A stretch of 64,000 nucleotides of DNA from Candidatus Zixiibacteriota bacterium (GTDB taxonomy: Bacteria > Zixibacteria > MSB-5A5 > GN15 > JAAZOE01): assembly GCA_023138975.1 (NCBI GenBank), contig JAGLON010000018.1, positions 160,381-224,380 of the forward strand, read 5' to 3'. The first letter of the stretch is position 1; each line of letters opens with the position of its first letter. Position numbers and translations under genes: made by a program. The notes under the pieces are model-generated. The model was given only the letters and a program-made list of their open reading frames with translations, ran no database searches and was not told the origin of the DNA. This document shows positions 25,845-49,076 of the stretch, piece by piece.

Positions 25845-26134
25845 GTAGGATTTCTCCATAGCTAATAGGATGGTAAATATCTTCATAATATCCCCCGATG
25901 GGTGAATAACTAGTAGATGTCCGCAAATCGATTTGCCCCAGTATAAACGGATAGGCCTACCCAAATGCCCCAAACTTGGTATTGTCTCGTGTGCTCTTTT
26001 GATGCCCCGCAACGCAATAATTGCATGCGGAGAAAAGTGATACTTGTATCTATATATAATATGCAATTGTGATTCTGTCAATAGAGCTTTTTCTTCAGAC
26101 TGTAAAGCCAATAAGAGTACTCTCAACCACAGAA

Positions 26135-26178: not shown

Positions 26179-26262
26179 TGCCGAAGGAGGGATTCGAACC
26201 CTCACGCCCGTAAGGACACTGCGCCCTGAACACAGCATGTCTACCAGTTCCATCACTTCGGC
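26179..26262 (-). tRNA. tRNA-Leu (anticodon CAG), long variable arm, CCA not encoded
   Basis: Minus strand reads GCCGAAGTGATGGAACTGGTAGACATGCTGTGTTCAGGGCGCAGTGTCCTTACGGGCGTGAGGGTTCGAATCCCTCCTTCGGCA. 7-bp acceptor stem, anticodon stem CTGTG/CGCAG with loop TTCAGGG, GGTTCGAATCC T-loop. Confidence 0.9.
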
Positions 26263-27817: not shown

Positions 27818-29204
27818 GCTGTTTGTTCTAATAATCACGATGCTGTCCGTTTCAGTTCTTTGGGCCGGAGACGCTAATTTCCAAAAGCTGTTTGATAAAG
27901 TGAACCCGCACCTCGTTTCGGTGGAATATAAGGCCGAGATGAATTTTATGGGTCAGTCCGAAGATATCGAGGGACGTGTCCCCGGCATCATTATCAACGG
28001 CAATATTGTTATCTTCGACGGGACATCATTGGGAGCCGGAAGACTGGCAACCGACATGTACGGCTCGCCTCAGGTTGATAAACCGAAATCCATCAAAATC
28101 ACGGATTATAACGACAACACGTATGATGCCGAGTATATCGGCGTTGATGATTACAGTCTAATCGCGTTTTGCCGTCTCCCCGATTCGGCCATGAAAAACC
28201 TGAAAGCAGTAGAGCTTAAAAATAAATCATTGCGGCTGGGTGAGGAAGTTTACGTTTTCTGGATGCTGCCGAAAAGCTACAATCCCAAATATCAACTGAC
28301 CAAAACCAGAATCACCTCGGTCCTGACTAAACCGGAAAAATTCTATCTCACCGGTGAACTGCCTCAGGAGTTTGTTCTGTCTCCGGTCGTTACGGCCAAA
28401 GGAGAGATGATCGGTATTATCACCCCGGTAACACAGGTACCGTCTTATACCCGCTTTGATTACGGTAACGTTTTCGGCAATCCGGTCGGGATTATGCCTC
28501 TGGAGCGGTTTGAGAAAATCATCAATAACCCGCCCGAAGAGGATAAAGTAAAACGCGGCTGGATGGGAATTTCACTTCAGGCGCTCGACCCGGAAATTGC
28601 TGAATTCTGGGATGTCAAAGTTGACGGCGGGATTATCCTAACGGATATAATCGATAATTCTCCCGCGGAAAAGGCCGGTCTGAAAGCCGGTGATTTCTTG
28701 ATCAAACTCAACGGCGAATCAATTGATGTTACGGAAGATGAAAACATTTCTATCTTCCAAAAGAAAGTTTCCGAATTAGGCGCTGGCTCGGAAATTACAC
28801 TGCTCTATATTCGTCCCGGTGACAATCAAGTGGATTCGAATGAAGTTACCATCGTTTTGGCCGAACGGCCGGGCGCTCGCAGTGACGCTCCCAAGCATGA
28901 AGATGAAAACTTCGACCTGACGGTACGGGATATGGTTTTTGCCGACTATAATGCCCGTAATCTAAAAGAGGACGAAATCTCCGGCGTCATCGTCGAGAAA
29001 ATCGAACAAGGCGGATGGGCCGCGGTCGGAGGTCTCCGTACCGGTCTTATCATCACGCAAATCAATGGCAACGAGATTGTCTCGGTTGAGGACTTCAAGA
29101 CCATCATGGCCGAGATTGAGAGCAGCAAAGACAAAGAAGTTGTATTCATGACGTGGCGGCGCAACAAGACAAAATTTGTGCACGTCAAAACCCACTGGGA
29201 ATAA
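27807..29204 (+). CDS. HtrA-like protein with two PDZ domains but a degenerate catalytic triad (pseudo-protease)
   Basis: Overlaps htrA by 11 nt. Where htrA has TNYHV it has VIFDG, and where htrA has GNSGGPLVNLDGEVMGI it has EFVLSPVVTAKGEMIGI. PDZ motifs NSPAEKAGLKAGDFLIKLNG and GLRTGLIITQING. Confidence 0.8.
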   Translation: MKNKLFVLIITMLSVSVLWAGDANFQKLFDKVNPHLVSVEYKAEMNFMGQSEDIEGRVPGIIINGNIVIFDGTSLGAGRLATDMYGSPQVDKPKSIKITDYNDNTYDAEYIGVDDYSLIAFCRLPDSAMKNLKAVELKNKSLRLGEEVYVFWMLPKSYNPKYQLTKTRITSVLTKPEKFYLTGELPQEFVLSPVVTAKGEMIGIITPVTQVPSYTRFDYGNVFGNPVGIMPLERFEKIINNPPEEDKVKRGWMGISLQALDPEIAEFWDVKVDGGIILTDIIDNSPAEKAGLKAGDFLIKLNGESIDVTEDENISIFQKKVSELGAGSEITLLYIRPGDNQVDSNEVTIVLAERPGARSDAPKHEDENFDLTVRDMVFADYNARNLKEDEISGVIVEKIEQGGWAAVGGLRTGLIITQINGNEIVSVEDFKTIMAEIESSKDKEVVFMTWRRNKTKFVHVKTHWE

Positions 29205-29902
29205 GGGAGGATGCCCCCCCTTTTTTAGGCTATTTAGAAAATCTTACGAGTTATAACGAGTTAGATTATCTTAATCCCGCGTTTTAATGCGGGAACGCGT
29301 AGATGACCTGGGTTTTATAATCATGAGTTTGCTTTTATACGGCACAGCTTCGCCTGCCTGAAGATATAAACTTTTTTTCTGACAGGGATACTCCCTTTTC
29401 AGGCAAAGCCTACTACTAAAAAGATGATTTTATAATTAACCACCCCCCATCCCCCTCCTTAGTAAGGAGGGGGGTTTCGACATTGTTCTGCCATTGTAAC
29501 TGGTCATATCCCGGCAGATGTAGATATCCCGCAACGCAGGACAATAGCCTGCCAGGCACAAAACTCCATTATGAAATTCGGTAGGTCAAGACCCCTGCGG
29601 TCTTGACAGTCGGTAGGGCAAGTTCACCCCCTACATGGGCACAATAGCCCTTAGGAACCTGCCATTGCCAACCAAAGGTTGGCAACCTAGATTCCCGCCT
29701 GCCATCAGAGGATAACTTTGTTTTTATGGTCAATCCTCTTCGTAGGGGCTGACTATGTCAGCCCGAAAAGACTTTGGCTGTGATTCCATCCGGGTCGACA
29801 GAGTCGCCCCCTACAGGGAAAATAGAATCCACTTTTTATAGAAAATGTTCAGACCATTTTTCGCCACCAATGGGTGCGGTACAAACTGCTCTAACCTACT
29901 CT
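29205..29902. repeat. hairpin-module mosaic B (REP/BIME-like)
   Basis: Modules at 29233-29294, 29346-29362, 29438-29475, 29520-29549, 29581-29607, 29637-29668, 29742-29814 and 29857-29885, all with copies in other gaps. Confidence 0.85.
29742..29814 (+). repeat. 73-bp REPIN-like inverted doublet (copy 1)
   Basis: GTAGGGGCTGAC-tat-GTCAGCCC ... GGGTCGAC-aga-GTCGCCCCCTAC. The reverse complement of 46035-46107 aligns end to end. Confidence 0.8.
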
Positions 29903-31945: not shown

Positions 31946-32039
31946 TGACTAGTCCGTGTTTTTTGACTTATTCAAGCTATAATATAAGTCAAAATAATGG
32001 CTTTGGATATCAAGTTATCTATTTTTTCTATTGGCTCAA

Positions 32040-32640
32040 TAATAAAGAGAAGGTCAAGACCTACCCACTGCGTGGGTACTATAGCCTGTGATCCTGACAT
32101 TGCCAACTGTTTTTCAAACGGGTCATTTCACCGCGCAAAATGCAACATCGTCCCCTCTATGAGAGGGGTGCCCGACAGGGCGGGGTGTGTTAATGCAATC
32201 TCATCCAATTCGCGCTCTGCGCGAAACGGCTTCGCCTGCCTGAAATTCTTCTACCCGGTATCCCACGGCTTCAGCCGTGGGTTTTTCCTTATTGATAGCA
32301 AGTCGACTAATTTCGCACCCAATGGGTGCGGTACACTGTAGCCACAAATCATCTACTAATAACATACACACATTTTCGCCACAACTTCGTTGGTGATTTC
32401 GAATTGCTCATCTTTTTATAGATATCCTTATATGTTATAGCGGAGAGACCATTATGCTCGCCTGTAAAAACCAAATCAAATTCAATCGCCAAAACGACCA
32501 ACTTTCAATCTTGCTTATTTCTGGCAATTTACACAAAGCCGAAAACAAAAAAACTTTAAAAAATGAGCAAGCAAACCCAATTCCTCGTAACGCCCTGTAT
32601 GGTAATCAGTAACGAGACTTTTTAAGGAAATAGGTCTCAA
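32040..32640. repeat. hairpin-module mosaic C (REP/BIME-like)
   Basis: Modules at 32052-32105, 32144-32192, 32228-32244, 32262-32281, 32311-32338, 32548-32569 and 32610-32628, with copies in other gaps. Confidence 0.85.
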
Positions 32641-32708
32641 AAAATATACGTTAATATGAAAAACAAAGCCATTTTCCGGATGAAAAACGCGAAGTACTCG
32701 TCGTAGAC

Positions 32709-32994
32709 GAGTGTCTCCCCTGCGAAAGCAGGGGTCCATGCCGAGATTGACTTTGCTTGGGCATGGATTCCCGTTTTCACGGGAATGACAAAATGATAAT
32801 TTGAGTATTAGAGTGTCTCCCCTGCGAAAGCAGGGGTCCATGCGGAGATTGACTTTGCTTGGGCATGGATTCCCGTTTGCACGGGAATGACAAAATGATA
32901 ATTTGAGTATTAGAGTGCCTCCCCTGCGAAAGCAGGGGTCCATGCGGAGATTGACTTTGCTTGGGCATGGATTCCCGTTTTCACGGGAATGACA
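32709..32994. repeat. tandem repeat, 102-bp unit x 2.8, each unit carrying three hairpins
   Basis: Units start at 32711, 32813 and 32915 with only about 3 substitutions in total. Hairpins cccctgc-gaaa-gcagggg, ccatgc..gcatgg and attcccg-ttttca-cgggaat. Confidence 0.9.
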
Positions 32995-33109
32995 TATCTG
33001 AAATTGGCTCAAATAATAAAACTTATTAGGATAATGCCAAACTTTTCAAATCTACTTTCCAATCTGACTTGACAATGGTTTTGCCACCATTTTGCCTGTT
33101 TTTGATTCC

Positions 33110-35779: not shown

Positions 35780-35798
35780 CACGCGGAAGCGTGTTTTC
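35778..35798 (+). terminator. terminator-like hairpin at the mltG stop
   Basis: aacacgc-ggaa-gcgtgtt followed by ttc. Short T-run. Confidence 0.5.
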
Positions 35799-35819
35799 AA
35801 CTACTACATTCTAAGCACC

Positions 35820-36045
35820 GTCATACCCGTGAAAACGGGTATCCAGAGCGGAGTTCGGTCAATCTCACTACTGGATTCCCGACTCGTCCCGTTTTACGGA
35901 ACTCTCGGGAATGACAGGGAGATGGCAACCGCTGGCTAGCAATGGCAGGATAGTTACCCACTGCGTGGGCACTATAGCTCGTGATCCTGACATTCGTGCG
36001 AAGCACGATAAGTACTCGTAAAGGTGACAGGCTATAATACCCACA
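35820..36045. repeat. hairpin-module mosaic D
   Basis: 35823-35842, 35871-35918, 35955-35994 and 36030-36042 have copies elsewhere. Confidence 0.8.
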
Positions 36046-36111
36046 TAGTGAGCGAACTCTCCTACTACTAAATTCAATTGACATAATGCCGGCGACGAGC
36101 TAATTTCATGC

Positions 36112-37368
36112 ATGAATATTATCAGACCATTTATCGTAATCATCATTATTCTAACCATCATTTCATGCGCCAATGATGACAGCCGGCAAGAGACTTTCAA
36201 TACTGTATGGCAAACTGTAAATGAAACATTTCCTGACAGCGCCTTCGGCGGTAAAAACTGGGAGAGCATCAAGAGTACTTATGAGCAGAACCTGAGTGGC
36301 ATTACTTCCGATTCCGAAATATGCAGTCTCATCAATAAGATGCTGTTTGAACTCAATGTCTCGCACACCTTCATCGGGCCAATATCAGAAATTCAGCAAA
36401 AAGCGTCTCCCTATATGTTCCAACCGGGAAGCCCGGGATTTGATATACGCATTCTTGATGATGAAGTTATTGTAACCCGGATAGATAATCCTCAGGTTGA
36501 GAAATCCGGACTTCAACCGGGATGTGAGCTTGTTTCAATAGACGGTTATCCCGTCGAGGAAATAATATCAGAGGCATCACTGATGCCTCCCTACAATAAC
36601 CGTTATAAGCATTTTCTGCAAACCGAGGAAGTTCTGAGGCATCTATATGGGCAACCCGAATCGACATTCCAAATCGAATACGAGGACGTTAATGGGAGCG
36701 TTCAATCTCAAAAAATCATTCGCATTGCGCGCGAGAATTCTATCGTACTCGCCCCCGAAATTCCTCCGATATATCTTGAGTGTGAGTGGAGAAAACTGGA
36801 GAATGAGGTTGGGTACTTGCGTTTTAACGCTTTTCAACCGGAGAATCCCACAGAGGTTCTCGCCGCTCTGGATTCGTTATCCGATTCAAAAGGGTTGATT
36901 CTTGATCTCCGGGGAAATAATGGCGGTTCAACATCCGCCCAGCAAGCTATCGGCGGAAGGTTTTTTGCAGATACAGTTGCGGCGGCTATCATTGGTACCC
37001 GGCACAATGATGATACGCTTTATTATTATGGAAGCCATGATACATTGACGGGACCGGTTGTGATACTCGTTGACGAAGTTAGTATTTCGGCGGCTGAGAT
37101 GTTTCCGGCGGCCATGCAGTCTCTTAACCGGGCAACAATTATTGGCGCGCAAACGCCCGGCGCCGTCATGGGCGGGGATTTAATATTTCTAAATGATAGT
37201 TTGTGTTTGGTTCATCCAATCTTTTCCGTTAAAACAGTTCAAGGGATAATGCTTGAAGGTCAGGGAGTAATCCCTGATATTGAAATCGCATTGAACAAAG
37301 AATTATTATCAAAAGGAATTGACACCCAGCTTGAAGCAGCCAAAGATTATTTGAAAGATAAAATGTAA
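36112..37368 (+). CDS. S41-family (tail-specific/C-terminal processing) peptidase lipoprotein with PDZ-like domain
   Basis: MNIIRPFIVIIIILTIISCAND lipobox. DLRGNNGGS and VDEVSISAAEMF (Ser nucleophile context). Confidence 0.8.
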   Translation: MNIIRPFIVIIIILTIISCANDDSRQETFNTVWQTVNETFPDSAFGGKNWESIKSTYEQNLSGITSDSEICSLINKMLFELNVSHTFIGPISEIQQKASPYMFQPGSPGFDIRILDDEVIVTRIDNPQVEKSGLQPGCELVSIDGYPVEEIISEASLMPPYNNRYKHFLQTEEVLRHLYGQPESTFQIEYEDVNGSVQSQKIIRIARENSIVLAPEIPPIYLECEWRKLENEVGYLRFNAFQPENPTEVLAALDSLSDSKGLILDLRGNNGGSTSAQQAIGGRFFADTVAAAIIGTRHNDDTLYYYGSHDTLTGPVVILVDEVSISAAEMFPAAMQSLNRATIIGAQTPGAVMGGDLIFLNDSLCLVHPIFSVKTVQGIMLEGQGVIPDIEIALNKELLSKGIDTQLEAAKDYLKDKM

Positions 37369-37439
37369 TGTTGGTTTTAGTCTCTTTGATTTATGCTTCT
37401 TGGTCTGCCACCATGCGATTGAACAATTATAAATCGTTA

Positions 37440-37790
37440 TGCTAACCACCCCCATCCCCCTCCTTGGTAAGGAGGGGGCGAAGGGGAGGTCTTCCTGTCC
37501 TAAACAAAAAAGTCTCGTTACTTCTTATCACACAGAGCGTTATAGCGAATTGGCTTCACTCGTCTTTGACGAGTACCCTGTGCTTGCTCACTTTTAAGGT
37601 TTTTATTTTTTGAATTAAGATTTAGCGGTTCAGAGGATAGATCTCGTCTCTGTGAGATTGCTGTTTTCATCAGTTTCCCTTTTTGATGGTGTTTACTAAA
37701 GAATCTATCTTCGGGATTTGAATCGAATTGGTAGTGAAAGTGTTGCTGTTACCGATGAGGACATCCCGCATAGCAGGACTATAGTCTGCC
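37440..37790. repeat. hairpin-module mosaic E
   Basis: 37444-37490, 37505-37610 (about 75% identical to the reverse complement of 32545-32630) and 37757-37786. Confidence 0.8.
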
Positions 37791-37797
37791 GGCCACA

Positions 37798-38412
37798 TTA
37801 ACTGTTTATATACTTCGCGACATTGGTATAATCGTGCATGTAAGTATAAGCACGACTTAATTCAAGATTTACTAAGCTTTCTCCATAGGATGATTCATAG
37901 TCATCCGTTATTTGAGATTCTTTATAATTGGCTTTATAGGCATCCTCAAAATCAAGAACTGCCTCACTGAATTTTTTCAGACACATATAAGTTCTACCCC
38001 TATTGAGATAATATAAATAGAGGTCTGAATATCGCTCTTCGTCTTCATATATGCTGAGAAGATCTGAAATATTTTCCAAATTGATTAAAGCTTTTCCGTA
38101 TTGGGATTGATGATAGAAGGAAAAGCCGAGATATTGATAACAGAGCAAATAGGGTGTTGATATTTTCTCATCATCGGGAAGTAGCTTTAAACATCTTATT
38201 AAGTATTTTTGACAGTCCTTATACTTATTAAGGTAGTAATAACTTTCATCAAGATGAAGGCTAATGTTCCATTCTTCAATTGTATCCGTGTGGTATTCAA
38301 GTAAATGCTTTAACAAAGGAACCGCTTTTTCATACAAAAAGTTATCGCTATAATCCGCAGCCTCCAGAAGCATTATTCCAGCATTTTCTCTCGAATGAAT
38401 TTCACATTTCAT
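37798..38412 (-). CDS. hypothetical TPR-like helical-repeat protein (AT-rich gene)
   Basis: 204-aa ORF with helical-repeat character (YEKAVPLLKHLLEYH, YGKALINLENI, FSEAVLDFEDAYKAN). No signal peptide. Markedly AT-rich. Confidence 0.55.
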   Translation of the reverse strand: MKCEIHSRENAGIMLLEAADYSDNFLYEKAVPLLKHLLEYHTDTIEEWNISLHLDESYYYLNKYKDCQKYLIRCLKLLPDDEKISTPYLLCYQYLGFSFYHQSQYGKALINLENISDLLSIYEDEERYSDLYLYYLNRGRTYMCLKKFSEAVLDFEDAYKANYKESQITDDYESSYGESLVNLELSRAYTYMHDYTNVAKYINS

Positions 38413-38489
38413 TTTCTTATTTGTCCTTTATTACTATAACAACACAGGTGAGTAATATTCACTCAATCCCAATAATTTATTAAGTGAAT

Positions 38490-38575
38490 GCCAACCTGCG
38501 ATTGGCAATGTCAGGAGCACGGGGCTCCTGACCTACGGGGCTATAGTGCCCCACGCAGTGGGTAGGTTTTGACCA
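38490..38575. repeat. hairpin-module cluster H
   Basis: The reverse complement of 38502-38573 matches 32052-32105 with an internal GTAG-headed hairpin (gtaggtcaggagc-cccgt-gctcctgac). Confidence 0.8.
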
Positions 38576-38583
38576 ACAGCTTT

Positions 38584-39090
38584 CTACAATCTCTTAGATG
38601 TAAACTTTTTGGCGAGCATCTTGGAATGCTTGCGGCGCTCAAGCCGCCGCTGGTAACGCTCAGGGGCGCTCTGGTGGAGTTCTTTTTCGAAATCAGTCTC
38701 TGGAATCACCGGCAATACCGGAATGGTTTTACCGTCCTCTCCAATAGCAACAAAAGTCAAAAACGACGAGGCACAAACCTTACGTTCCGCAGTCTTCAGA
38801 TTCTCACTGATGATATTTACATAGACTTCCATCGAGGTATTATGCGTCCAGGTCACGAAGGCTTCCATACAGATCATTTCACCGACATTGATAGCATGAA
38901 GAAAATCGACCGAGTCGGTCGAAGCGGTGACGACTTGCTGACGGGCATGGCGGTAGGCGGCTATCGAGGCGATGTCGTCAATATAGTTCATGACCATGCC
39001 GCCAAACATGGTGCCCAGCACATTGGAATCGGGAGGAAGAACGAGCATGGCTTTGATGGTACGAGATTGCGCTACGGTTTTTGACTCCAC
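38584..39090 (-). CDS. acyl-CoA thioesterase (hotdog fold, YciA/BFIT-like)
   Basis: LVLPPDSNVLGTMFGGMVMNYIDDIASIAA. GTG start at 39090 is preceded by AAGGAG (39097-39102); the longer ORF-track N-terminus runs into repeat modules. Confidence 0.8.
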   Translation of the reverse strand: MESKTVAQSRTIKAMLVLPPDSNVLGTMFGGMVMNYIDDIASIAAYRHARQQVVTASTDSVDFLHAINVGEMICMEAFVTWTHNTSMEVYVNIISENLKTAERKVCASSFLTFVAIGEDGKTIPVLPVIPETDFEKELHQSAPERYQRRLERRKHSKMLAKKFTSKRL

Positions 39091-39408
39091 AAGGTTCTCC
39101 TTCTTGGGCCTGATTGTTTTATTTATACCGTCGGGCCACACTCCTGCCAGCGGCGGGGGCCAAGCCCTCAACTATATTGGGACTATAGCCGACAGAATAG
39201 GTCATTATTTTTTGTATTGTTTCGTTGGGTCTTGGCGTGCCAACGGTGCGGTGTGACCCAGCGATAGTAGTTATATAAAGTTACGAGTCGGAGGTAAAGT
39301 CAAGTTGATAATGTTTTGGAATCTCCGTATCACATTTTTAACGGTTAACTTGCTGATAGAGTAAAATAACTATAGATTGTAAGAAATAAAAAACAGCAGG
39401 AATATTTT

Positions 39409-39900
39409 ATGGATGCCACTTGCAAAGAGATGGTCTGGCGACAACTTGGCGCCGCAATCGATACTCTTGAGAACTGTATAACGGAATGCCCTGATGAACG
39501 ATGGGATGATCGAGCCAGGAGGGTAAAATACTGGTATGATGTTTTCCACGCTCTGTTCTGGCTGGACTATTATATGTCGGATGATCATGATAGTTTTCAT
39601 CCGCCGGAGCCGTTTGGTCTTGAGGAGATGGATCCGGCTGGGATAATACCCGCGCGAGCTTATACCAAAGAGGAGTTGTTGACTTATCTGAATTTTGGCC
39701 GGGAAAAAGCCAGAGCAAGGATAGAGTCTATGACGGTTGAGAAAGCGTCTGAGGTTTATAAATTCAGGAAAGCCGATGTCAGGTTAGATGAATTATTCTT
39801 GTACATTATGCGTCATATTCAGCATCATGCGGGTCAATTGAATCTGATATTGCGCGATGAATACGACCAAGGTAGTCGCTGGGTATTTCAGGCTAAATAG
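39409..39900 (+). CDS. DinB-family protein
   Basis: 163 aa; C-terminal MRHIQHHAGQL. Confidence 0.7.
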   Translation: MDATCKEMVWRQLGAAIDTLENCITECPDERWDDRARRVKYWYDVFHALFWLDYYMSDDHDSFHPPEPFGLEEMDPAGIIPARAYTKEELLTYLNFGREKARARIESMTVEKASEVYKFRKADVRLDELFLYIMRHIQHHAGQLNLILRDEYDQGSRWVFQAK

Positions 39901-40127: not shown

Positions 40128-40679
40128 CTACGCCGCGTTGAATGCTTGGTTGATATATAGTCCGGCGGTGAGTTCAGCTACTATCCCCTCGCCAAGCCCG
40201 TCAATATATGTACCGAAGGCGCCTTCGCTCTCAGATGATAAAGTCAGGAGTCCTACTTTTTGGCAGTCATACATAAGCGGAATAATCAAGACCGACTTAG
40301 TTCTCTCAGAGAGTATTATTTTTCTCTCAATAATGTTTGATGATATATGATCAGGATAATTGTCAGCTACAGGATATCCTTGCATAAGAACCTGATACAT
40401 GTTTGAGTTATTGTTTTGTATGATTAAGGTCAAGCCAGTGTTCCATCGGCGTCTTTTGTATATGTGTGTAACATGAAGGTTGTTTTGATTTGGATTAAAG
40501 TGCGACAGCGAGGCTTTTTCAATACTGAAAAAGCGCGATAGTTTGGCTATTGTTTGTCTTAGAAGCGTATCAATTCCTTTGGGGTCTATTTTAGTGTCCG
40601 AATAAGGTGTTTCTTTTTGATAAGTCGGCTGGTTCATTAATGACTCCACACTGCATTGATGATTCCACAAATCCGCCAT
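40128..40679 (-). CDS. GAF-like domain protein
   Basis: 183 aa; SVLIIPLMYDCQKVGLLTLSSE pattern. Last gene of the HK-RR operon. Confidence 0.55.
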   Translation of the reverse strand: MADLWNHQCSVESLMNQPTYQKETPYSDTKIDPKGIDTLLRQTIAKLSRFFSIEKASLSHFNPNQNNLHVTHIYKRRRWNTGLTLIIQNNNSNMYQVLMQGYPVADNYPDHISSNIIERKIILSERTKSVLIIPLMYDCQKVGLLTLSSESEGAFGTYIDGLGEGIVAELTAGLYINQAFNAA

Positions 40680-40704
40680 ACAAAGGCCCCCTTGATTTTA
40701 GGAT

Positions 40705-42078
40705 TTATTTCATTTTGGCCGGCTGGGCCAAATTAAATTTCTTTATTTTTCGCCACAAAGTCGTTCGTCCTATGCCCAGTTGGTTGGCGGTTAATGAATG
40801 ATTCCAGTTATTCTCTTCAAGCGATTTCAGTATTTGCAGTTTTTGACCATCCTGCAACGAGCGGGTACTTAATGAAATAGTTGGATGAGTTGTCAATTGT
40901 GTTTCTCTCGGTGAAATGAAGATAATGTCCTCATATTGAATCTGATTGCGCCCCGAAAGAGCCACTGCCCGTTTGAGAGTATTTTCCAACTCCCGGACGT
41001 TGCCGGGCCAGTTGTGCTTGAGAAGTAATTCGAGACCGTCGGCCGACAATGTAATCGGTGACCGGTTGTATTCTTTGGAAATGTTCTTCAAAAAGTATTC
41101 TGCCAGCGCCGGAATATCCTCGGGCCGTTCCCGGAGTGCTGGAATAAGTATTGGCATTACATTGAGCCGGTAATAAAGATCCTCGCGGAAGGTGCCCTCG
41201 CTGACCATCTTACTCAAATCAGCATTAGTCGCGGCAATGATTCGAACATTAATCTTGCGGGAATGATTGCCTCCCACCGGACGGACTTCTTTTTCCTGTA
41301 AAACGCGCAGGATTTTTGCCTGAAGCGGGTAGGGCAGATCGCCGACTTCGTCTAAGAATATCGTGCCGCCTTCAGCTTCCTCAAAAAGACCCTTTTTATT
41401 GGTAATGGCATTAGTAAAGGAGCCTTTAACGTGTCCGAATAACTCGGATTCCAAGAGATTTTCCGGGATGGCGGAGCAGTTGATGGGAACGAATGACTTG
41501 TCACGGCGGTCACTATGATGATGGGTCACCTTGGCGAATAATTCTTTGCCGGTACCTGATTCCCCGGTAATCAGAATCGAGATATTCATTCCGGCTATTC
41601 GATCGATGACCGATTTCAGATTGTCAATAATCTTTGAGGTTCCAATGATATTATCATACCCGAATTGATGAGCAACTTCCTGCCGTAGGTAACGGATAGT
41701 ATGTCTCAGGTCGATATGTTCTAGAGCTTTATTTACTTTGAAAACAACTTCAGCGCTTTTAAATGGTTTGGTGATATAATCCGAGGCGCCGTTTAGAATT
41801 GCCTGAACTGCGGTTTCGACGGTTCCGTAGGCGGTCATAATAATAACTTCGGTTTCTGGATGGATTCGCTTGGAATTCATTAATATATCAAGCCCTGAAT
41901 CTGAACCCAGGCGGAGATCGGTTAACACTAAATCAAAAACCTGTGATTCAAGATGAATGATGGCTTCTTTTTTATCCTGTGCTACAGAGGTATCAAATCC
42001 ATTCTTTGTAAATAACCTGAAAAGCATATTCCGCATTCCGGGTTCATCATCAACTATCAAAATCGAGGGCATTACCAC
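40705..42078 (-). CDS. sigma-54-dependent response regulator (REC + AAA+ + HTH)
   Basis: ILIVDDEPGM...DLVLTDLRLG, GESGTGKE, GSFTNA (GAFTGA variant), ELFGH, ANQLGIGRTTLWRKIKKF. Confidence 0.9.
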   Translation of the reverse strand: MVMPSILIVDDEPGMRNMLFRLFTKNGFDTSVAQDKKEAIIHLESQVFDLVLTDLRLGSDSGLDILMNSKRIHPETEVIIMTAYGTVETAVQAILNGASDYITKPFKSAEVVFKVNKALEHIDLRHTIRYLRQEVAHQFGYDNIIGTSKIIDNLKSVIDRIAGMNISILITGESGTGKELFAKVTHHHSDRRDKSFVPINCSAIPENLLESELFGHVKGSFTNAITNKKGLFEEAEGGTIFLDEVGDLPYPLQAKILRVLQEKEVRPVGGNHSRKINVRIIAATNADLSKMVSEGTFREDLYYRLNVMPILIPALRERPEDIPALAEYFLKNISKEYNRSPITLSADGLELLLKHNWPGNVRELENTLKRAVALSGRNQIQYEDIIFISPRETQLTTHPTISLSTRSLQDGQKLQILKSLEENNWNHSLTANQLGIGRTTLWRKIKKFNLAQPAKMK

Positions 42079-42805
42079 TCCTTTTATGAGTTCCGGTATT
42101 AAGAGTAATAGTTACGGTCGTACCAATGTGTTTTTCTGATTGTATACGCATATTACCGTTATGACGGCGCACAGCCTGGTCGGCAATAGATAGCCCGAGC
42201 CCGGTTTTACCCGGTTTGGTTGTAACAAATGGACAGGCAACCAGAGGCAACTGTTCGGGAGGAATCCCGGAACCATTGTCACGGATTTCTATGGTGATAC
42301 TATTGTCCTGTGAACAAACGGATAGCTTTATAGATCCGCCTGAAATATTGGTGATACTCTCAAAGGCATTTTCAAGGAGACTATCTATCATCACGCAAAT
42401 AATTTCGGAATCACCATTGAAAAACAGGTCGTCGGTACTGGAAACGAATTCTGCATTGACCGAGCTTGATTGCCCGGAGGCGCGGTCGGAGGCATGGGCT
42501 AAGCGGGATTGACACAGTTCGTTTAGATCAATCTGTATTTGAGTATTATTGTTATGGCAGGCAAAAAGGGTAAAACGCTTGAGAACGTCGTTGAGTGAAT
42601 CGGCTGCTTCTATTATACTGCGAATAAATGACAATTCGTCTTCACCAATTGGTTCATCAGGAGTCAATTCAATCTGGCTGGCAGCGGTCGTGATTACACT
42701 CAGAGGATTTCGTAACTTGTGCGTGAGCCTCTGTGCGATCCAGGGAAGCGATTGATAATCATCTGTGGAAGGACACTTTGGCACAAGCAGTGAAAGATCA
42801 CTCAT
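42050..42805 (-). CDS. soluble histidine kinase (HisKA + HATPase_c, no sensor or TM region)
   Basis: H-box RLTHKLRNPLSVI. DNGSGIP and GKTGLGLSIA (G-boxes). 251 aa. Overlaps the RR gene by 29 nt. Confidence 0.85.
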   Translation of the reverse strand: MSDLSLLVPKCPSTDDYQSLPWIAQRLTHKLRNPLSVITTAASQIELTPDEPIGEDELSFIRSIIEAADSLNDVLKRFTLFACHNNNTQIQIDLNELCQSRLAHASDRASGQSSSVNAEFVSSTDDLFFNGDSEIICVMIDSLLENAFESITNISGGSIKLSVCSQDNSITIEIRDNGSGIPPEQLPLVACPFVTTKPGKTGLGLSIADQAVRRHNGNMRIQSEKHIGTTVTITLNTGTHKRSGNALDFDS

Positions 42806-43187
42806 AGACTAACATTACCTTTTGTTTCAATCTGCAACATTTACTTAAGATATCGGCGGATTACCGCTTATATTAACAACCGGAGATCGGTTTTTTTAAT
42901 GTGATAGAGTCTGAAAAGTGATCTCCCGTTAAAGGCAAGGCCGTAACTAATGCCATATCAATACGTTACCACCGGTAAAGGGTATAGTTTTAAAATCTGA
43001 CGAGTTTAGTTTGGTCTTACTTTAGGCATCCCATTGTTTGCAGGAAGATGAATATATATTAAATTAATTCTGGTTCATCTTGAAATGAGAAAACCAAATG
43101 AAAGTAAAAATAAGGATATTTTGCGCTTTGTTTATGGCATTTCGTTTTTTTTCTTGACTAAAGAGGGCATTTTTTATAACTAAGCCT

Positions 43188-43469
43188 ATGCCAATATCAA
43201 TGGAGCAAGTCGAGCGTGTGGCCGGTCTGGCACGGCTGAAATTAACCCCCACAGAAAAAGAGTCTCTAAAAACCGAACTCTCTCAAATTATCACTTATTT
43301 TGATTTGCTCAGCGAAGTTAACACCGAAAACATTAGTCTGATTGAGGAGAATGTTTCTCCAAGGCAGCTTCGCGATGATATTCCAACCAAATCACTGGAT
43401 GTAGAAGACGCGCTTAAAAACGCTTCTCGAACAAAGGATAATTGTATTATCGTGCCTCGGATTTTATAA
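43188..43469 (+). CDS. gatC: Asp/Glu-tRNA amidotransferase subunit C
   Basis: MPISMEQVERVAGLARLKLTPTEKE...; 93 aa. Confidence 0.9.
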   Translation: MPISMEQVERVAGLARLKLTPTEKESLKTELSQIITYFDLLSEVNTENISLIEENVSPRQLRDDIPTKSLDVEDALKNASRTKDNCIIVPRIL

Positions 43470-43471
43470 CA

Positions 43472-44221
43472 GTGTCCCATGTGACCGCCATTATTCCCGC
43501 CCGCCTGCAAAGCAAGCGGTTTCCCCGCAAGGTGTTATTCCCTTTAAAAGGAAAGCCGCTGATTTATTATGTATGGAAAGCGGCGACTCAATCCAAACTA
43601 ATCAATCAAATCTTCATCGCCACTGATTCGGAAGAAATCGGACGGACGGTCAACAGTTTCGGCGGCGCCGTGATTATGACTTCAGCCAAACCAAAAAATG
43701 GGTCTGAGCGGGCGGCCGAAGCGGTTCGGGAAATGAAGACTAATATCGTGGTCAATATCCAAGCGGACAACCTAGGGCTAAAGGGTAGTATCCTTGATCG
43801 GGTTATTCGGGAAATGATAGCCGATCGGAAAATCAATTTCGCGACACTGGCTCGCAAAATCGACGGCAAGGACTGGAAGAAGAAGATTAACAACCCTGAT
43901 GTTGTAAAAACCATTATGACTGCAGACAGCCATGCCGGGTGGTTTTCACGATTACCGATTCCATACATTCAGCGTCCGGGCAGAAAACGGTCAATTGATT
44001 TATATAGTTTTTTGGAACACATCGGTGTATATTTTTATCGTAAGCAGGCTTTGATGGACTATGCCTTGTGGGACCGAGCCATGACTGAAAAAGTCGAGTC
44101 TTTGGAGCAGCTTCGGATTTTGGAAAATGGGGGTAGGATTCGACTATTTACTACTCGCACCAATATCCTGTCAGTTGACAGTAAGAAAGTATTGGAAAAA
44201 ATAGGCAATATTTTAAAATAG
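43472..44221 (+). CDS. kdsB: 3-deoxy-manno-octulosonate cytidylyltransferase (CMP-KDO synthetase)
   Basis: VTAIIPARLQSKRFPRKVL..LKGKPLIYYVW...IATDSEEI...NGSERAAEAV. GTG start chosen just after the gatC stop (uncertain by a few codons). Confidence 0.85.
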   Translation: MSHVTAIIPARLQSKRFPRKVLFPLKGKPLIYYVWKAATQSKLINQIFIATDSEEIGRTVNSFGGAVIMTSAKPKNGSERAAEAVREMKTNIVVNIQADNLGLKGSILDRVIREMIADRKINFATLARKIDGKDWKKKINNPDVVKTIMTADSHAGWFSRLPIPYIQRPGRKRSIDLYSFLEHIGVYFYRKQALMDYALWDRAMTEKVESLEQLRILENGGRIRLFTTRTNILSVDSKKVLEKIGNILK

Positions 44222-45895
44222 ATGGAGAGAGACGTGGAGGAGCGTAAGACTAAATATGTGTTTATTACCGGCGGGGTAGTATCCTCATTGGGAAAAGGGA
44301 TAGCATCGGCATCGCTGGGATTACTTCTAAAAAAACGGGGACTTTCGGTCAATATTCTCAAACTCGACCCGTATCTGAATGTTGATCCGGGGACGATGAA
44401 TCCGTTCCAGCATGGCGAGGTATATGTTCTTGATGATGGTTCCGAGACTGATCTGGATTTGGGGCATTACGAGCGGTTTCTCAATCAATCAATGTGCTCG
44501 GACAATAATGTCACTTCGGGACAAATTTATCATACCATTATTACTCGCGAACGGCGCGGAGATTATCTCGGCGCGACGGTACAGGTTATTCCTCATGTGA
44601 CAGCTGAGCTAAAATCATCGATTAAAAAACTGAGCAAAATCAACGGTCACGTTGACGTGATCATCGCTGAAATCGGCGGCACTGTTGGTGATATTGAATC
44701 GCTACCGTTTATGGAAGCGATCCGTCAAATGGGCCTGGAAGGCGACCCGTCCGATACGATGTTTATTCATCTGACATTGGTGCCGTATATTGATGCGGCC
44801 GGCGAGCTAAAAACCAAACCGACACAGCATTCGGTCAAGGCTCTCAGGGAGATCGGTATTCAGCCGAATATGCTTTTGTGCCGTACGGCCAAGACGTTAG
44901 GTGATGATATCCGCAATAAAATAGCGCTGTTCTGTTCGGTGCCGAGCAAGAACGTTATTGAAGCCATAGACGCTTCGACGATATATGAAGTACCTCTGCT
45001 GTTTGAGGAGCATGATTTTTCCAATATCGTTCTCAAGCATTTGAATATTGAGGCTCCCGAGCCGGATTTGACCGAATGGGAAGATTTGGTCAATCGTATC
45101 AAACATCCCAATAACCGGATAAAAATCGCCATTTGCGGTAAATATGTCTATCTGAAGGACGCTTATAAATCCATCATGGAAGCGTTCTATCATGCCGGAG
45201 CCGAGAATGATGCCCGGGTTGATCTGGTCTGGGTTTCTTCTGAGGATATCAAAAAAGGCGGAGCGGCCAAGTTCCTTGACGATATCGACGGCCTCTTGAT
45301 TCCGGGAGGATTCGGCGAACGGGGAGTTGAGGGTAAGATTGAGTCTATCCGGTTTATCCGCGAAAATAAAATTCCGTTTTTAGGGATTTGTCTCGGTATG
45401 CACTGTGCCGTGATTGAATACGCTCGCAATGTCTGCGGATTGAAAGACGCTCATTCGTTTGAATTTTATCGCGAACTGAAAAACCCGGTGATTCATCTCA
45501 TGGCCGATCAGGAAAAGATTACCGGTCTGGGCGGAACTATGAGGCTGGGTTCGTATCCGGCGGTCATTGAAAAAGATAGCCTTACGTATAAAGCGTATGG
45601 CGAAACAGAAATTGCCGACCGTCATCGTCATCGTTATGAGTTTAACAATAAGTACCGCGACATGGTGACCAAGGACGGAATGAAACTGGTCGGTTTGTCG
45701 CCTGATGGTAAACTGGTGGAGGTTGTTGAAATAGAGAATCATCCATGGTATGTAGCAGTGCAGTATCATCCGGAACTGAAGTCGCATCCGACCAAGCCGC
45801 ATCCGTTGTTCAGAGATTTCATTGCGGCGGCGGTGAAGTACCATAAGGAGCGTCGTTCGGCGGTAGAAAACCCGGAACAAAACTCAATAGCGTAA
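44222..45895 (+). CDS. pyrG: CTP synthase
   Basis: KYVFITGGVVSSLGKGI, GTMNPFQHGEVYV, and the glutamine amidotransferase domain PFLGICLGMH. Confidence 0.95.
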   Translation: MERDVEERKTKYVFITGGVVSSLGKGIASASLGLLLKKRGLSVNILKLDPYLNVDPGTMNPFQHGEVYVLDDGSETDLDLGHYERFLNQSMCSDNNVTSGQIYHTIITRERRGDYLGATVQVIPHVTAELKSSIKKLSKINGHVDVIIAEIGGTVGDIESLPFMEAIRQMGLEGDPSDTMFIHLTLVPYIDAAGELKTKPTQHSVKALREIGIQPNMLLCRTAKTLGDDIRNKIALFCSVPSKNVIEAIDASTIYEVPLLFEEHDFSNIVLKHLNIEAPEPDLTEWEDLVNRIKHPNNRIKIAICGKYVYLKDAYKSIMEAFYHAGAENDARVDLVWVSSEDIKKGGAAKFLDDIDGLLIPGGFGERGVEGKIESIRFIRENKIPFLGICLGMHCAVIEYARNVCGLKDAHSFEFYRELKNPVIHLMADQEKITGLGGTMRLGSYPAVIEKDSLTYKAYGETEIADRHRHRYEFNNKYRDMVTKDGMKLVGLSPDGKLVEVVEIENHPWYVAVQYHPELKSHPTKPHPLFRDFIAAAVKYHKERRSAVENPEQNSIA

Positions 45896-45920
45896 GGGGG
45901 GATGAACCCCCAGAATTAAT

Positions 45921-45950
45921 AAAAGCCTCGTATTGTACGGGGCTTTTTTT
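45921..45950 (+). terminator. rho-independent terminator after pyrG
   Basis: aaaagcctcg-tattgta-cggggc followed by TTTTTTT. Confidence 0.8.
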
Positions 45951-46034
45951 ATAGTACCTAGCAGATGTGGACCTCCCGCAAGGCAGGACTATATCCTTCG
46001 GCCTCCTCGCAGTGACGGGTTAATTACTTTCGAG

Positions 46035-46107
46035 GTAGGGGACGACTCTGTCGTCCCGTCTGGAATCACTACATGAAATTTTTCGGGCTGACAAAGTCAG
46101 CCCCTAC
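46035..46107 (-). repeat. 73-bp REPIN-like inverted doublet (copy 2, inverted relative to 29742-29814)
   Basis: GTAGGGGACGAC-tct-GTCGTCCC ... GGGCTGAC-aaa-GTCAGCCCCTAC. Confidence 0.8.
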
Positions 46108-46430
46108 GATGAAACATGTGTGAATCCCAGAATCATATTGTGATATTAGCTTTCCCAGTAGCTGTGGACATCTCTCAAGCCGGGACTATAACGTGCCAAG
46201 AACACAACAGTTCTATTCGTCATCGCGAGGAGCCATGGTGACATGGCGATCTGTCAACATCCTAAACAGACTGCCACAAAACCCTTCAGGTTTCTCGCAG
46301 TGACGGATCATTTATCTTAGCATGAGATTAGATCGGTGGCCCATCCCGTAAGAGGTTCTTACCTCGTCGGGTGGTCTAAAGTCTCATTTGGTTCCCGCTT
46401 AGCGGGATCTGAGTGACGTAGGACATAATT

Positions 46431-46491
46431 GGTAACCCATGGCTTTAGCCATGGGAAACAAAAACACCCACGGCTAAAGCCGTGGGGTACC
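46431..46491. repeat. second REPIN-like doublet (two inverted copies of the cccaYggc-ttta-gccRtggg hairpin)
   Basis: ggtaacccatggctttagccatggg-aaacaaaaaca-cccacggctaaagccgtggggtacc. Confidence 0.75.
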
Positions 46492-46525
46492 GGAACATGA
46501 ACCCCCTTATAAAAGATCCCTATAA

Positions 46526-46556
46526 CAAAAAGCCCCGTATTGTGCGGGGCTTTTTT
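46526..46556 (-). terminator. rho-independent (bidirectional) terminator after the 832-aa gene; near-duplicate of 45921-45950
   Basis: aaaaagccccg-tattgtg-cggggctttttt. Confidence 0.8.
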
Positions 46557-46577
46557 GTAACACTTGTCTAAAATACT

Positions 46578-49076
46578 TTACTTCTGTGATTCTTTGACCA
46601 GCTCCGTGTATTGATCTATCAAGACTTTCAGGGCATCTTCGGATTCGGACTCGGCGAAAACCGTGAAGGCCGCCGTGAGCCGGTCAGGAACGACTAAGAC
46701 AGTTCCGCCGTCTTCAAAGACTCGCACACCGTCGATTAACTGGCGGTTCTTATTATCGGTTTCGCTTATCAAGGTTCGCATGACCTGCCCTTTTTTGCCC
46801 CAGGGACATGGTACCGATACGGTTCGGCGGACATAGCCGGAATGTTCTTCGCGCATATCGGAAAGATTAAGTTCTGAACTGGCCATCATTTCAAGCAGAT
46901 GCGCCGTCGCGAACATAGCATCGGCTCCGATTTGGAATCCGGGGAAAATGAAACCTCCGAGGGTACCACCGACAAAGTCAGCTCCCTGACGAATATGAGC
47001 ATCCATCATCGCCAGATGGTCGTTGCGTACCCGGATGACTTCAACATCATAGCGTTCTGCTATTTTCTCGACACCCATTGAGGCGGCGACCGGAACGGCT
47101 ATGCGCCGGGCGTTGTGATTTTTAAGGTATAGGTCAGTAATCATTAAAAGCAGCATTTGAGAACCAATAGCTGTTCCGGTACGATCGATTACAGTCATTT
47201 TTTCTGCGGCGGGATTTATCATGACACCCAAGTCAGCCGAAAGAGCGGTAACAATAGTGGACAACTGCCCGATCTTCTCATCGGAACTGCGGGAATGCTC
47301 AGAGGCGCGCGATGGATTCGGGAAGGCGTTTAAGCTAATAGCGTCGATTCCGAGGGCTGATGTTATTTCCGGAAAAAACTGTCCGGCCGAGCCATAGGAA
47401 TAGTCGATGACGATGCGAAAATCTTTATGTTTTACTTTATCCCGGTTGATGGACCGGAGGAATTCCGCTTTATAGTTTTTGAAAAGCCCTTCCTGCAGTT
47501 CCAGATGGCCGGTTTCGGCCATTGAAGCTCGCGGGAAATCCTCATTGGCAAACGAACGCTCGACCTTCTTGGCTTTGGCGGTCGGGAGGTCAAGGCCGGA
47601 GGCATCGAGGAAAATTATATCAACCATGTTGTAGTTGGCCGGGTTGTGACGGAGATAAACTCCGGCGCCGTAATTGCCGTTTTTCAGCGCATGGCGCAAA
47701 ACAGGTGAGGGGAGAATTTCGAGATCATCAACATCAACACCGGTGGCCATCAGTCCGCACATGATCGAGCGTTTTAACAGCCGGGTGGCATCGGAAGCGT
47801 CACGACTGGCGACAATGCGTTGATTGCGTCCCAGAGAAGCTCCGAAAGCGGCTCCGAGTTTAACCGCCATTTCCGGAGTTATTTCGGTCAGTCCCAAGCC
47901 GGAAACTTTTGAATCGGTAAACAGTTCACGGTTCCATTTTTCGCCCCAGACAATGGATGATGAGACGACCGCGCCTTCATCGACGATTTTTCCCGGCCAG
48001 ATTTTGCAGTTGGCTCGAATACTGGCTCCGGCTCCAATTTTACAATCATCAGATATAACGGCCCGGTCCAAAATAGATGATTCGCGTCCGATTTGTACTC
48101 GATTGGTAATGATGGAACTTGATATTGAGGTCAGGTCGCCGATGTTTGTATCCGACCAGATAGTCGTGTCGGATATCTTGGCTTCCGCGCCAATCACTAC
48201 CTTGGCTCCTATGATGGAGTTTCCAATAATAGCACCTCGGCCAATATGGGAGCCATCGCCAAGAAAAACGGTTCCGGTAAAAGTCACTTTGTCGGCGATA
48301 TCCACGTTTTTTCCTTGATAGACAACAGTATCACCCTGCTCAGTGCGTTCATCGGTTTGATAGATTGTCACATCCCCGTCGAGGATGTCCTGCTGGGCAT
48401 GAGTATATTCGTCGATGTTACCGATATCGCGCCAGTAGCCTTGCGATATCTTACCGAGGAGATTCATCTCTTTCTGGAGCATGATGGGGAATAGATTTTG
48501 AGAAAAATCAAAATTTGTTTTGGGCGGTATGAGTTTAACCGTATCCGGTTCGAGAATGTAAATTCCGGTATTGATAGTATCGGAGAACATCTCGCCCCAG
48601 GACGGTTTTTCCATAAATCTGGTGATGCGGTTGTTTTTATCGGTGATAACAATACCATAGGCCAGCGGATTTTCGAGCCTCGTGAGTACGATAGAGGCAT
48701 CGCCGTTATTTGCCTTGTGAAAATCGACAGCTTCGGTCAGGTTAAAATCGGTCAGGACGTCGCCGGAAATAATAAGAGTTGTTTCGTCGCAAAAATCGGA
48801 TGCCGCGCGTACGGCTCCGGCTGTTCCGTAATCCTGATCGGGAAGCATATAATTCATTTTGACGCCAAATTTTCGGCCGTCCTTAAAGTAGTCGGTGATA
48901 ATTTCATGCTGGAAGAAGAGCAATGTCATGATTTCATCGAATCCGTTTTCGCGGCAGAGATTGACGACGTGTTCCATCATCGGCAGGTTACCGATTGGTA
49001 CCATCGGTTTGGGCATGTTAATGGTCAGGGGCCGCAAGCGGGTCCCGAATCCTCCGGCCATGATTATTGCTTTCAC
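46578..49076 (-). CDS. sugar-phosphate nucleotidyltransferase (NTP_transferase + left-handed beta-helix) fused to a degenerate phosphohexomutase-like domain
   Basis: N-terminus MKAIIMAGGFGTRLRPLT. Hexapeptide-repeat middle region. The C-terminal PGM/PMM-like fold has YLRHNP in place of TASHNP and INPAAEK in place of DGDGDR. Confidence 0.8.
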   Translation of the reverse strand: MKAIIMAGGFGTRLRPLTINMPKPMVPIGNLPMMEHVVNLCRENGFDEIMTLLFFQHEIITDYFKDGRKFGVKMNYMLPDQDYGTAGAVRAASDFCDETTLIISGDVLTDFNLTEAVDFHKANNGDASIVLTRLENPLAYGIVITDKNNRITRFMEKPSWGEMFSDTINTGIYILEPDTVKLIPPKTNFDFSQNLFPIMLQKEMNLLGKISQGYWRDIGNIDEYTHAQQDILDGDVTIYQTDERTEQGDTVVYQGKNVDIADKVTFTGTVFLGDGSHIGRGAIIGNSIIGAKVVIGAEAKISDTTIWSDTNIGDLTSISSSIITNRVQIGRESSILDRAVISDDCKIGAGASIRANCKIWPGKIVDEGAVVSSSIVWGEKWNRELFTDSKVSGLGLTEITPEMAVKLGAAFGASLGRNQRIVASRDASDATRLLKRSIMCGLMATGVDVDDLEILPSPVLRHALKNGNYGAGVYLRHNPANYNMVDIIFLDASGLDLPTAKAKKVERSFANEDFPRASMAETGHLELQEGLFKNYKAEFLRSINRDKVKHKDFRIVIDYSYGSAGQFFPEITSALGIDAISLNAFPNPSRASEHSRSSDEKIGQLSTIVTALSADLGVMINPAAEKMTVIDRTGTAIGSQMLLLMITDLYLKNHNARRIAVPVAASMGVEKIAERYDVEVIRVRNDHLAMMDAHIRQGADFVGGTLGGFIFPGFQIGADAMFATAHLLEMMASSELNLSDMREEHSGYVRRTVSVPCPWGKKGQVMRTLISETDNKNRQLIDGVRVFEDGGTVLVVPDRLTAAFTVFAESESEDALKVLIDQYTELVKESQK

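Follow-up and report, generated by a model that had tools for sequence, protein, structure and literature searches.

Duplicated terminator hairpins bracketing a composite repeat array between pyrG and a convergent gene in a Zixibacteria genome

How did two nearly identical terminator hairpins come to stand at the two ends of a short, repeat-rich gap between convergent genes? The question was raised by a 64,000-nt stretch of a Candidatus Zixiibacteriota genome (the window), in which 682 nt separate two convergent housekeeping genes: pyrG (CTP synthase; 44222-45895, + strand; Pfam CTP_synth_N 3e-124 and GATase), the final gene of a gatC-kdsB-pyrG run, and a gene for an 832-aa NTP-transferase/phosphomannomutase fusion (the 832-aa gene; 46578-49076, - strand; Pfam NTP_transferase and PGM_PMM I-III). 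A preliminary description of the window had read this gap as a 570-bp insertion that duplicated its target. Inspection covered 83 kb (~2%) of the source genome, including the window (L082, L093 and L094 are of the same genome), and the corresponding junctions of four related genomes. On balance we favor, by a modest degree, the view that a unit of ~50-60 nt was duplicated locally and that repeat elements then accumulated between its copies.

The duplicated 10-mer and terminator hairpin

The 10-mer ATGAACCCCC was located at 45902-45911 and 46497-46506, and the hairpin AAAGCCYCGTATTGTRCGGGGCTTTTTT at 45922-45949 and 46529-46556 (+ strand in both cases). Together the two pairs form direct repeats that bracket the pyrG/832-aa gap, as the preliminary description had stated, with the right border at 46497 rather than 46496. 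The 10-mer has only these 2 copies in the window; shuffled controls held a mean of 0.18 copies and reached 2 copies in 1 of 100 shuffles. The hairpin was scanned for with up to 3 mismatches, and the earlier remark that it occurs nowhere else in the window held even at this threshold (no third copy; 0 in shuffles). The count in the 83 kb is likewise 2, both inside the gap, and no other repeated terminator was found in the window. Taken as 29-mers (45921-45949 and 46528-46556), the copies are identical at 27 of 29 positions. The bracketing units are unequal (49 nt on the left, 60 nt on the right), and the spacers from 10-mer to hairpin (9 nt left, 20 nt right) gave no convincing alignment.

The information content of the hairpin is low, it being a palindrome between an A-run and a T-run with ~11 free bases. 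An identical hairpin of 26-31 nt was recovered by the metagenome scan from five contigs of other organisms (L088-L092), mostly in AT-rich contexts, after different unrelated genes and without the 10-mer. These were rejected as homologues and judged convergent, given their unrelated AT-rich contexts and the absence of the 10-mer; they illustrate how frequently bidirectional terminators converge on one sequence. The two copies in the window are homologous, the identical loop and the common upstream 10-mer going far beyond chance for one specified pair of neighboring sites. Because terminator sequences are not conserved among the related genomes (described below), the 93% identity of the two copies reflects an event within this lineage.

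The left copy (T-L; 45921-45950, + strand; flagged by the terminator scan) is the predicted intrinsic terminator of pyrG. On the + strand it forms a 12-pair stem followed by U7, 26 nt past the pyrG stop; on the - strand it is weak (-11.8 kcal/mol), the T at 45928 giving a C.A mismatch where the + strand has a G.U pair. The right copy (T-R; 46527-46557) is predicted to serve the 832-aa gene as its intrinsic terminator. It forms a good hairpin on either strand: the - strand, where it stands 21 nt past the 832-aa stop, gives -18 kcal/mol with UUUUUGUU next to the hairpin, and the + strand gives -20 kcal/mol with U6 next to it. Pairing on the + strand is kept by both substitutions between T-L and T-R. 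Each copy thus presents what is expected of a Rho-independent terminator, a GC-rich stem-loop and a U-run shortly past the stop on the coding strand, and from fold and position both probably function as such. Terminator duplication as first proposed therefore stands in part: the copies are paralogous, each lies 21-26 nt from one stop and each folds on the relevant strand, and the idea that each gene has its own copy of the duplicated terminator is reasonable; the proposed insertion was not supported. The folds would fit a separate terminator for either gene, possibly with a degree of strand specialization, although two substitutions cannot prove selection. Since predicted terminators flank the array, the array would lie outside both transcription units, a location that suggests a function at the level of DNA, or no function at all, more than stabilization of mRNA.

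The left 10-mer is the 3' part of a post-stop G-run/ATGAA/C-run hairpin, GGGGGGATGAACCCCC ('H0'; 45896-45911, + strand; 5-bp G/C hairpin fold), which starts at the first base past the pyrG stop. The exact 16-mer recurs at L094:3423-3438, ~20 kb beyond the right end of the window, directly past the stop of an anti-sigma (zf-HC2) gene, and is followed there by TTTTCTTG and a 950-nt repeat array. A variant is found past the stop of a third gene at 29205, and the related motif taaGGGAGGATGCCCCCCC that had been noted at 29202-29220 is present. The right 10-mer (46497-46506, + strand) is without an adjacent G-run and lies in a 12-mer, ATGAACCCCCTT, common to the L094 copy. As part of a dispersed post-stop motif, the 10-mer is therefore not a unique target sequence. 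Translation of GGGGGG-ATG-AAC-CCC as a mini open reading frame (ORF) was considered and rejected: the resulting peptides (MNPQN and MNPLFLLSRR, each ending at a stop codon, and a 24-aa one) share only MNP(L).

Composition of the array and its relatives

The bracketed interior is composite, made up of six or more short hairpin repeats, and is not one element. From the left, module A (GATGTGGAC..CCCGCAAGGCAGGACTATA; 45957-45993, + strand) is 78% identical to a second copy at 46154-46190 (+ strand; family D2), with relatives at 37754-37783 (matching 45964-45993) and around 29515. A degenerate CGTC-tagged element reading CCGTCACTGCGAGGAGG (45988-46026, - strand; CGTC tag at 46017-46014) is a 74% direct repeat of 46276-46314. 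GTAG-tagged hairpins then form an inverted doublet resembling a REPIN (a doublet of repetitive extragenic palindromes, REPs) at 46028-46114, with GTAGGGGACGACTCTGTCGTCCC on the + strand and GTAGGGGCTGACTTTGTCAGCCC on the - strand (arms 74% complementary; fold z-score -4.1). This doublet recurs as a unit at 29735-29821 at 89-97% identity, both hairpins and their relative arrangement being kept. Two further CGTC-tagged elements were identified by tag scan and fold: CGTC-ATCGC-(GAGGAG + inner hairpin)-GCGAT-CTG at 46218-46254 (+ strand), with a related 15-mer at L094:3129-3143 and an architecture matching CGTCATTCTGAGGAG..GAGAATCTG of the related genome L085, and CGTC-ACTGC-(loop with inner hairpin)-GCAGT-CTG at 46266-46305 (- strand). 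These are followed by a long imperfect hairpin module (46322-46387; DNA fold -13.4 kcal/mol, z-score -4.3) and a small hairpin, TCCCGCTTAGCGGGA (46393-46407; inverted repeat I8, fold).

The array ends in an inverted doublet of CCCAYGGC-WWWR-GCCRTGGG hairpins (46431-46491; arms 88% complementary, I3; fold -41.7 kcal/mol, z-score -8.8), and the hairpin at 46466-46493 is found again at 32255-32282. In the terminator scan the arm on the - strand, with TGTTTTTGTT after it, was terminator-like. Copies of the form CCCA[T/C/A]GGC-loop-GCC[A/G/T]TGGG were found at 46436-46486 and 32262-32281, with relatives at L084:1059-1085 and at L085:12925-12945 and 14961-14981. Compensatory stem changes between copies and between genomes argue for constraint on the hairpin itself. 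The only ORFs in the gap are of 41 and 47 aa. Rfam gave 0 matches at gathering thresholds in the whole window, and only sub-threshold, terminator-driven matches in the gap.

Arrays of the same families fill the window gaps at 22533-23489, 29205-29902, 31946-32514, 35780-36111 and 37369-37797, and the 950-nt array just outside the window (L094:2486-3439) has modules in common with that of the pyrG/832-aa gap. All 7 arrays seen in the 83 kb abut at least one gene 3' end, the distribution reported for REPs (PMC3733652), and 4 start just past a terminator-like hairpin. Pieces of the pyrG/832-aa interior recur only as sub-modules of 28-87 nt, each in a different gap. Duplicated-terminator flanks, which had been suggested as something to look for on other mosaics, occur on 1 of the 7, the pyrG/832-aa array alone.

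The sequence features of these repeats match the published GTAG and CGTC REP superfamilies (PMC3733652), and they are of the kind known as REPs, bacterial interspersed mosaic elements (BIMEs) or neisserial intergenic mosaic elements (NIMEs). GTAGGG/CCCTAC is enriched 20-40-fold in the arrays. An unpaired 5' GTAG tag on a short (20-40 bp) palindrome, as in REPs, is seen at 46035(+), GTAG-GGGACGAC-TCT-GTCGTCCC, and at 46107(-), GTAG-GGGCTGAC-TTT-GTCAGCCC. More copies lie at 22731, 29581, 29742, 29814 and 38536, making seven clear copies in 64 kb, all intergenic; in this ~2% sample of the genome the copies are dispersed and extragenic and, as in REPs, mostly downstream of ORFs, between convergent or unidirectional genes. 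The recurrence of 46028-46114 at 29735-29821 is that of an inverted doublet acting as the repeated unit, as in REPINs. Of the L082, L093 and L094 genes for which Pfam hits were listed, none is a REP-associated tyrosine transposase (RAYT) or other Y1 transposase (PF01797).

The CGTC superfamily has a CGTC/TGTC tag, an 8-9-bp stem beginning AT, a 4-5-nt loop and a short CCA tail (PMC3733652), and its neisserial member dRS3 reads ATTCCC-N8-GGGAAT (PMC1797815). A canonical CGTC repeat is found at 35819 (CGTC-ATACCCGT-GAAA-ACGGGTAT-CCA), and the dRS3 form TGTC-ATTCCCGT-GAAA-ACGGGAAT-CCA, with ATTCCC-N8-GGGAAT, at 32790, 32892 and 32994. Elements at 35916 and 40044 have the 8-bp stem and the CCA tail but 22-24-nt loops, and those of the pyrG/832-aa gap (46017-, 46218+, 46305-) have the tag, but with outer stems of only 5 bp, loops of 15-22 nt and CTG as the tail. 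A loose tag-plus-hairpin scan gave overall no more matches than shuffles, and tag evidence was restricted to obvious perfect-stem copies. Literature searches on the CGTCATTGCGAG-type motif and on Zixibacteria repeats returned nothing relevant.

Other repeats were noted in and around these arrays. Three tandem 102-nt units (32709-33014; 85-98% identical) each carry the dRS3-form TGTCATTCCCGTGAAAACGGGAATCCAT on the - strand and are overlapped by a probably spurious 165-aa ORF (32515-33012). The palindrome CTATAG, usually as GGnaCTATAGyC beside a hairpin, is ~11-fold enriched in arrays of the source genome (for example at 22811, 22984, 32079, 35972, 37779, 38541 and 39183, and in L094:732-3171), is absent from arrays of L085, L087, L095 and L096, and fits neither the GTAG nor the CGTC tag. 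A hairpin family conserved across genera, AACCACCCCC..CCCCCTCCTTAGTAAGGAGGGGG, was found at 22656-22701, 29428-29473, 37433-37478, L094:3221-3257, L085:12510-12552 and L087:11530-11565; in L085 and L087 it immediately follows the stop of the orthologous 832-aa gene, a position taken in the window by a terminator copy. Elsewhere in the window, an apparent 908-nt gap in the ORF map (5688-6595) holds no repeat array and is coding, corresponding to a 343-aa glycosyltransferase in Logan gene calls (L093:2846-3877), and an 878-aa gene (23490-26126, - strand) has ~150-nt units repeated internally at 24113-25714 and probably encodes a repeat-domain surface protein.

Related genomes and the origin of the duplication

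The four junctions compared (L084, L085, L095 and L096) are from other Zixibacteria, with 832-aa orthologues at 74-83% amino acid identity. In L084 (83%), the gatC-kdsB-pyrG/kinase-regulator-GAF block is inverted and the 832-aa gene faces a GAF-domain gene across 61 nt containing one unrelated hairpin. In L085 (81%), pyrG is separated from the 832-aa gene by arginase, PvlArgDC, a 75-aa ORF and a different array of 459 nt. In L096 (74%) the DNA separating them carries five genes (5.5 kb), and in L095 (75%) the gene opposite the 832-aa gene encodes a secretion-tail protein. The orientation of pyrG and the 832-aa gene is conserved in L085 and L096, and the genes separating them in relatives occupy 2.6-5.5 kb. 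An empty site with a single terminator, which the preliminary description had proposed to look for in relatives, was found at none of the four junctions, each being rearranged or gene-filled, and no conservation of terminator sequence was seen across them. The gap itself holds no remnants (pseudogenes) of the L085 junction genes. In the comparison with L085, synteny is broken at places where the window has arrays. From these comparisons the junction is a long-standing variable hotspot.

The block inverted in L084 corresponds to window 40128-45895 (gatC-kdsB-pyrG, a histidine kinase, a sigma-54 regulator and a GAF protein). The window also holds an extra array-bounded block relative to L084, with S41 peptidase, TPR, thioesterase and DinB genes (36112-39900) between YceG and the GAF-domain gene.

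No strain closer than these relatives was present in the collections searched, exact-protein look-ups placing the species in one sample and one metagenome-assembled genome (MAG). The best PyrG relative among species representatives in the empty-site search had 78% amino acid identity, and its downstream gene was not conserved. L001 and L083, Logan contigs assembled independently from the same sample, are base-for-base identical to the window through each terminator copy. Both of these k=31 contigs stop inside module A (45964-45990), with an overlap of 27 nt, which indicates that repeat arrays fragment short-k assemblies of the source organism.

In the local duplication that we favor, the unit would consist of the 3' half of the post-stop G/C hairpin, the spacer and the terminator hairpin, and could have been copied by slippage, by unequal recombination or by short-homology recombination with other DNA. 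The array would then have grown piecemeal between the copies through insertion of repeat elements and recombination, in a pocket outside both transcription units where added DNA may cost little, and the left copy would now serve pyrG and the right copy the 832-aa gene. The repeats, identities, folds, composite interior and junction variability are direct observations; the order of events, the mechanism of duplication and the function as terminators are what we infer from them. Several points weigh against this account. The unalignable spacer (9 versus 20 nt) is odd for a recent contiguous duplication with an identical hairpin loop, and, with the 10-mer belonging to a dispersed motif, the two conserved blocks could have separate histories. 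Inspection reached ~2% of the genome, and a genome-wide terminator-module family may exist. No closer relative or strain variant was present in the public data searched to fix the ancestral state, and no RAYT or other mobilizing enzyme was seen in the 83 kb.

Some weight must accordingly be given to a dispersed terminator-module family, in which the unit (what is left of the post-stop hairpin, with the terminator hairpin) would itself be a dispersed repeat module of the genome. Each gene end would have gained, or kept, its copy independently of the other, and the presence of both in one gap would be coincidence plus selection for terminators; we regard this as possible but doubtful. It would account for the dispersal of the 16-mer GGGGGGATGAACCCCC, which stands past another gene's stop and opens another array, for the unconserved spacer, and for the right 10-mer having ATGAACCCCCTT in common with the distant L094 copy and not with the left copy. 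All other parts of the gap belong to dispersed families, and were copies to settle solely in gaps of the array type, of which 7 were seen, a pair in the same gap would not be very improbable. Against this reading, a third hairpin copy is absent from the 83 kb, the L094 16-mer is not followed by such a hairpin and the window has no other repeated terminator. Both copies are also in direct orientation, each with the 10-mer upstream.

That a single ~546-nt segment entered a site with one shared bidirectional terminator and duplicated a ~50-60-nt target, by staggered cleavage and fill-in or by integration, Campbell-type or site-specific, of a circle that had a homologous copy of the unit on it, we consider unlikely. 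Direct repeats do stand exactly at both borders, and a repeat-bracketed segment in the homologous gap of L085 suggests that such segments may recur at this hotspot. There TTCGCGCATCGCGCGA(T)TGGCAGGTCTGAGGACAAACCCGCCC, a perfect direct repeat of 42/43 nt at 12876-12917 and 13287-13329 with only 2 copies in the 22.5 kb read, brackets ~370 nt in which a 75-aa ORF and two modules of the hairpin type lie; this lends the model some life in a recombinational form (Campbell-type or hairpin-directed). For the arrays of Neisseria it has been proposed that a recombinase acts on hairpin repeats (PMC1797815), and the mismatches between the window copies could be explained by integration of a diverged paralogous copy. 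The interior, however, is pieced together from modules that recur independently of one another and contains an internal duplication (A/B copies at 74-78%), and in the sequence examined it neither recurs as a unit nor encodes a transposase. The segment has no terminal inverted repeats, its ends at 45951 and 46496 having only GTACC in common, in direct orientation. An equal-length identical target duplication is contradicted by the 49 and 60 nt of the repeats, their two substitutions and their unalignable spacers. We know of no transposition mechanism that would yield such a duplication. Peel-and-paste, which is thought to mobilize REP-type elements (IS200/IS605-type Y1 transposases), makes no target duplication. 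Neither an integrase nor a transposase was found in or beside the gap, whose neighbors are pyrG and a sugar-nucleotide enzyme gene, and the flanking repeats lack the identical core of an att-type integration, differing at 2 of 29 positions as well as in the spacer. The 0 of 4 empty sites and the 1 of 7 arrays so flanked likewise tell against one insertion. A 570-bp insertion that duplicated its target, as the preliminary description had proposed, is thus poorly matched by a composite interior devoid of element ends or enzymes, an unequal 'duplication' and a dispersed 10-mer.

Other integration readings were set aside. The sole tRNA in the window, considered for a tRNA/att-site, is at 26179-26262. 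For integron attC/CALIN (clusters of attC sites lacking integron integrases) and dif/Xer readings, no core-site or dif-like sequence was noticed on reading the gap, no dedicated scan being run. In two Zixibacteria genomes, that of the window and L085 (12876-13329), long hairpin-containing direct repeats (43-60 nt) bracket segments of a few hundred nt at this hotspot. They might instead have been left by a recombination system that puts cassettes into hairpin modules or terminators and duplicates the hairpin, a speculation to which we attach little credence; if true, this would be the array-building mechanism that has been hypothesized yet never shown for dRS3 in Neisseria.

Convergence of unrelated look-alike terminators, or an assembly join of two loci through a repeat, is highly improbable: the same hairpin did arise in five unrelated metagenome contigs and Logan unitigs do break inside module A (45964-45990), but the identical loop and upstream 10-mer together carry ~30+ bits for a single specified pair, the ~27-nt repeat where the unitigs break is below read length, a 298-kb MAG contig spans the join, and L085 and L096 share the orientation of the 832-aa gene and pyrG.

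Comparison with known repeat systems

REP and REPIN elements, reportedly treated by Bertels and Rainey in 2011, are GTAG-tagged palindromes. Like them (Di Nocera et al. 2013, PMC3733652), the window copies have GTAG(G) as a 5' tag before a stem of 8 bp with a 3-nt loop and are extragenic and downstream of ORFs, and the inverted two-copy doublet recurring as a unit (46028-46114, 29735-29821) is REPIN-like. They differ from published cases in their Zixibacteria host, outside the eight phyla reported (PMC3733652), in a copy number taken from 83 kb and in that no RAYT was seen in that sample. Usual REPs lie between stop codon and terminator, whereas the window repeats lie beyond the terminators.

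In NIMEs, dRS3 elements are CGTC-1 repeats that flank RS elements (Bentley et al. 2007, PMC1797815). The window arrays resemble NIMEs (PMC1797815) in being built of many different 30-150-nt modules with CGTC-tagged hairpins between them, in holding dRS3-form copies, in varying in content between related genomes and in coinciding with synteny breakpoints. Unlike NIMEs, the CGTC elements of the gap have the short outer stems, long loops and CTG instead of CCA tail described above, and the arrays show no regular dRS3-RS-dRS3 periodicity and no sign of an antigen-variation role or of a dRS3-targeting phage.

Another comparison is with bidirectional or tandem terminators between convergent genes, which the locus resembles in its GC stem between an A-run and a T-run, its position 21-26 nt past the stop and the both-strand fold of T-R. 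Unlike a shared bidirectional terminator, there are two paralogous copies 607 nt apart with an array between them; L084, by comparison, has a single hairpin in the 61-nt gap past its 832-aa gene, with unrelated sequence and a different partner gene. The locus offers a concrete case of terminator duplication, with possible strand-specific specialization.

BIMEs of E. coli are clusters of REPs, or palindromic units, with other motifs between convergent genes. Like them, the arrays lie at gene 3' ends and are mosaics in which palindromic units alternate in orientation; unlike them, each array has far more distinct module families. By analogy with E. coli, a DNA-level role such as binding of gyrase or integration host factor, where positive supercoils collide, is plausible.

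These comparisons bear on annotation, as spurious small ORFs are called over arrays and k=31 assemblies break there, and on rearrangement, the pyrG block being inverted, or set apart by 2.6-5.5 kb of genes, in relatives. To our knowledge, Zixibacteria are a phylum without cultured members. No new kind of mobile element is revealed; the repeats add members to known families, from a phylum for which the literature searched gave no earlier description of them, and the duplicated terminator is a local curiosity. The 'mosaics' of the window are explained as REP-type arrays of the GTAG and CGTC superfamilies, now in Zixibacteria, at gene 3' ends and synteny breakpoints.

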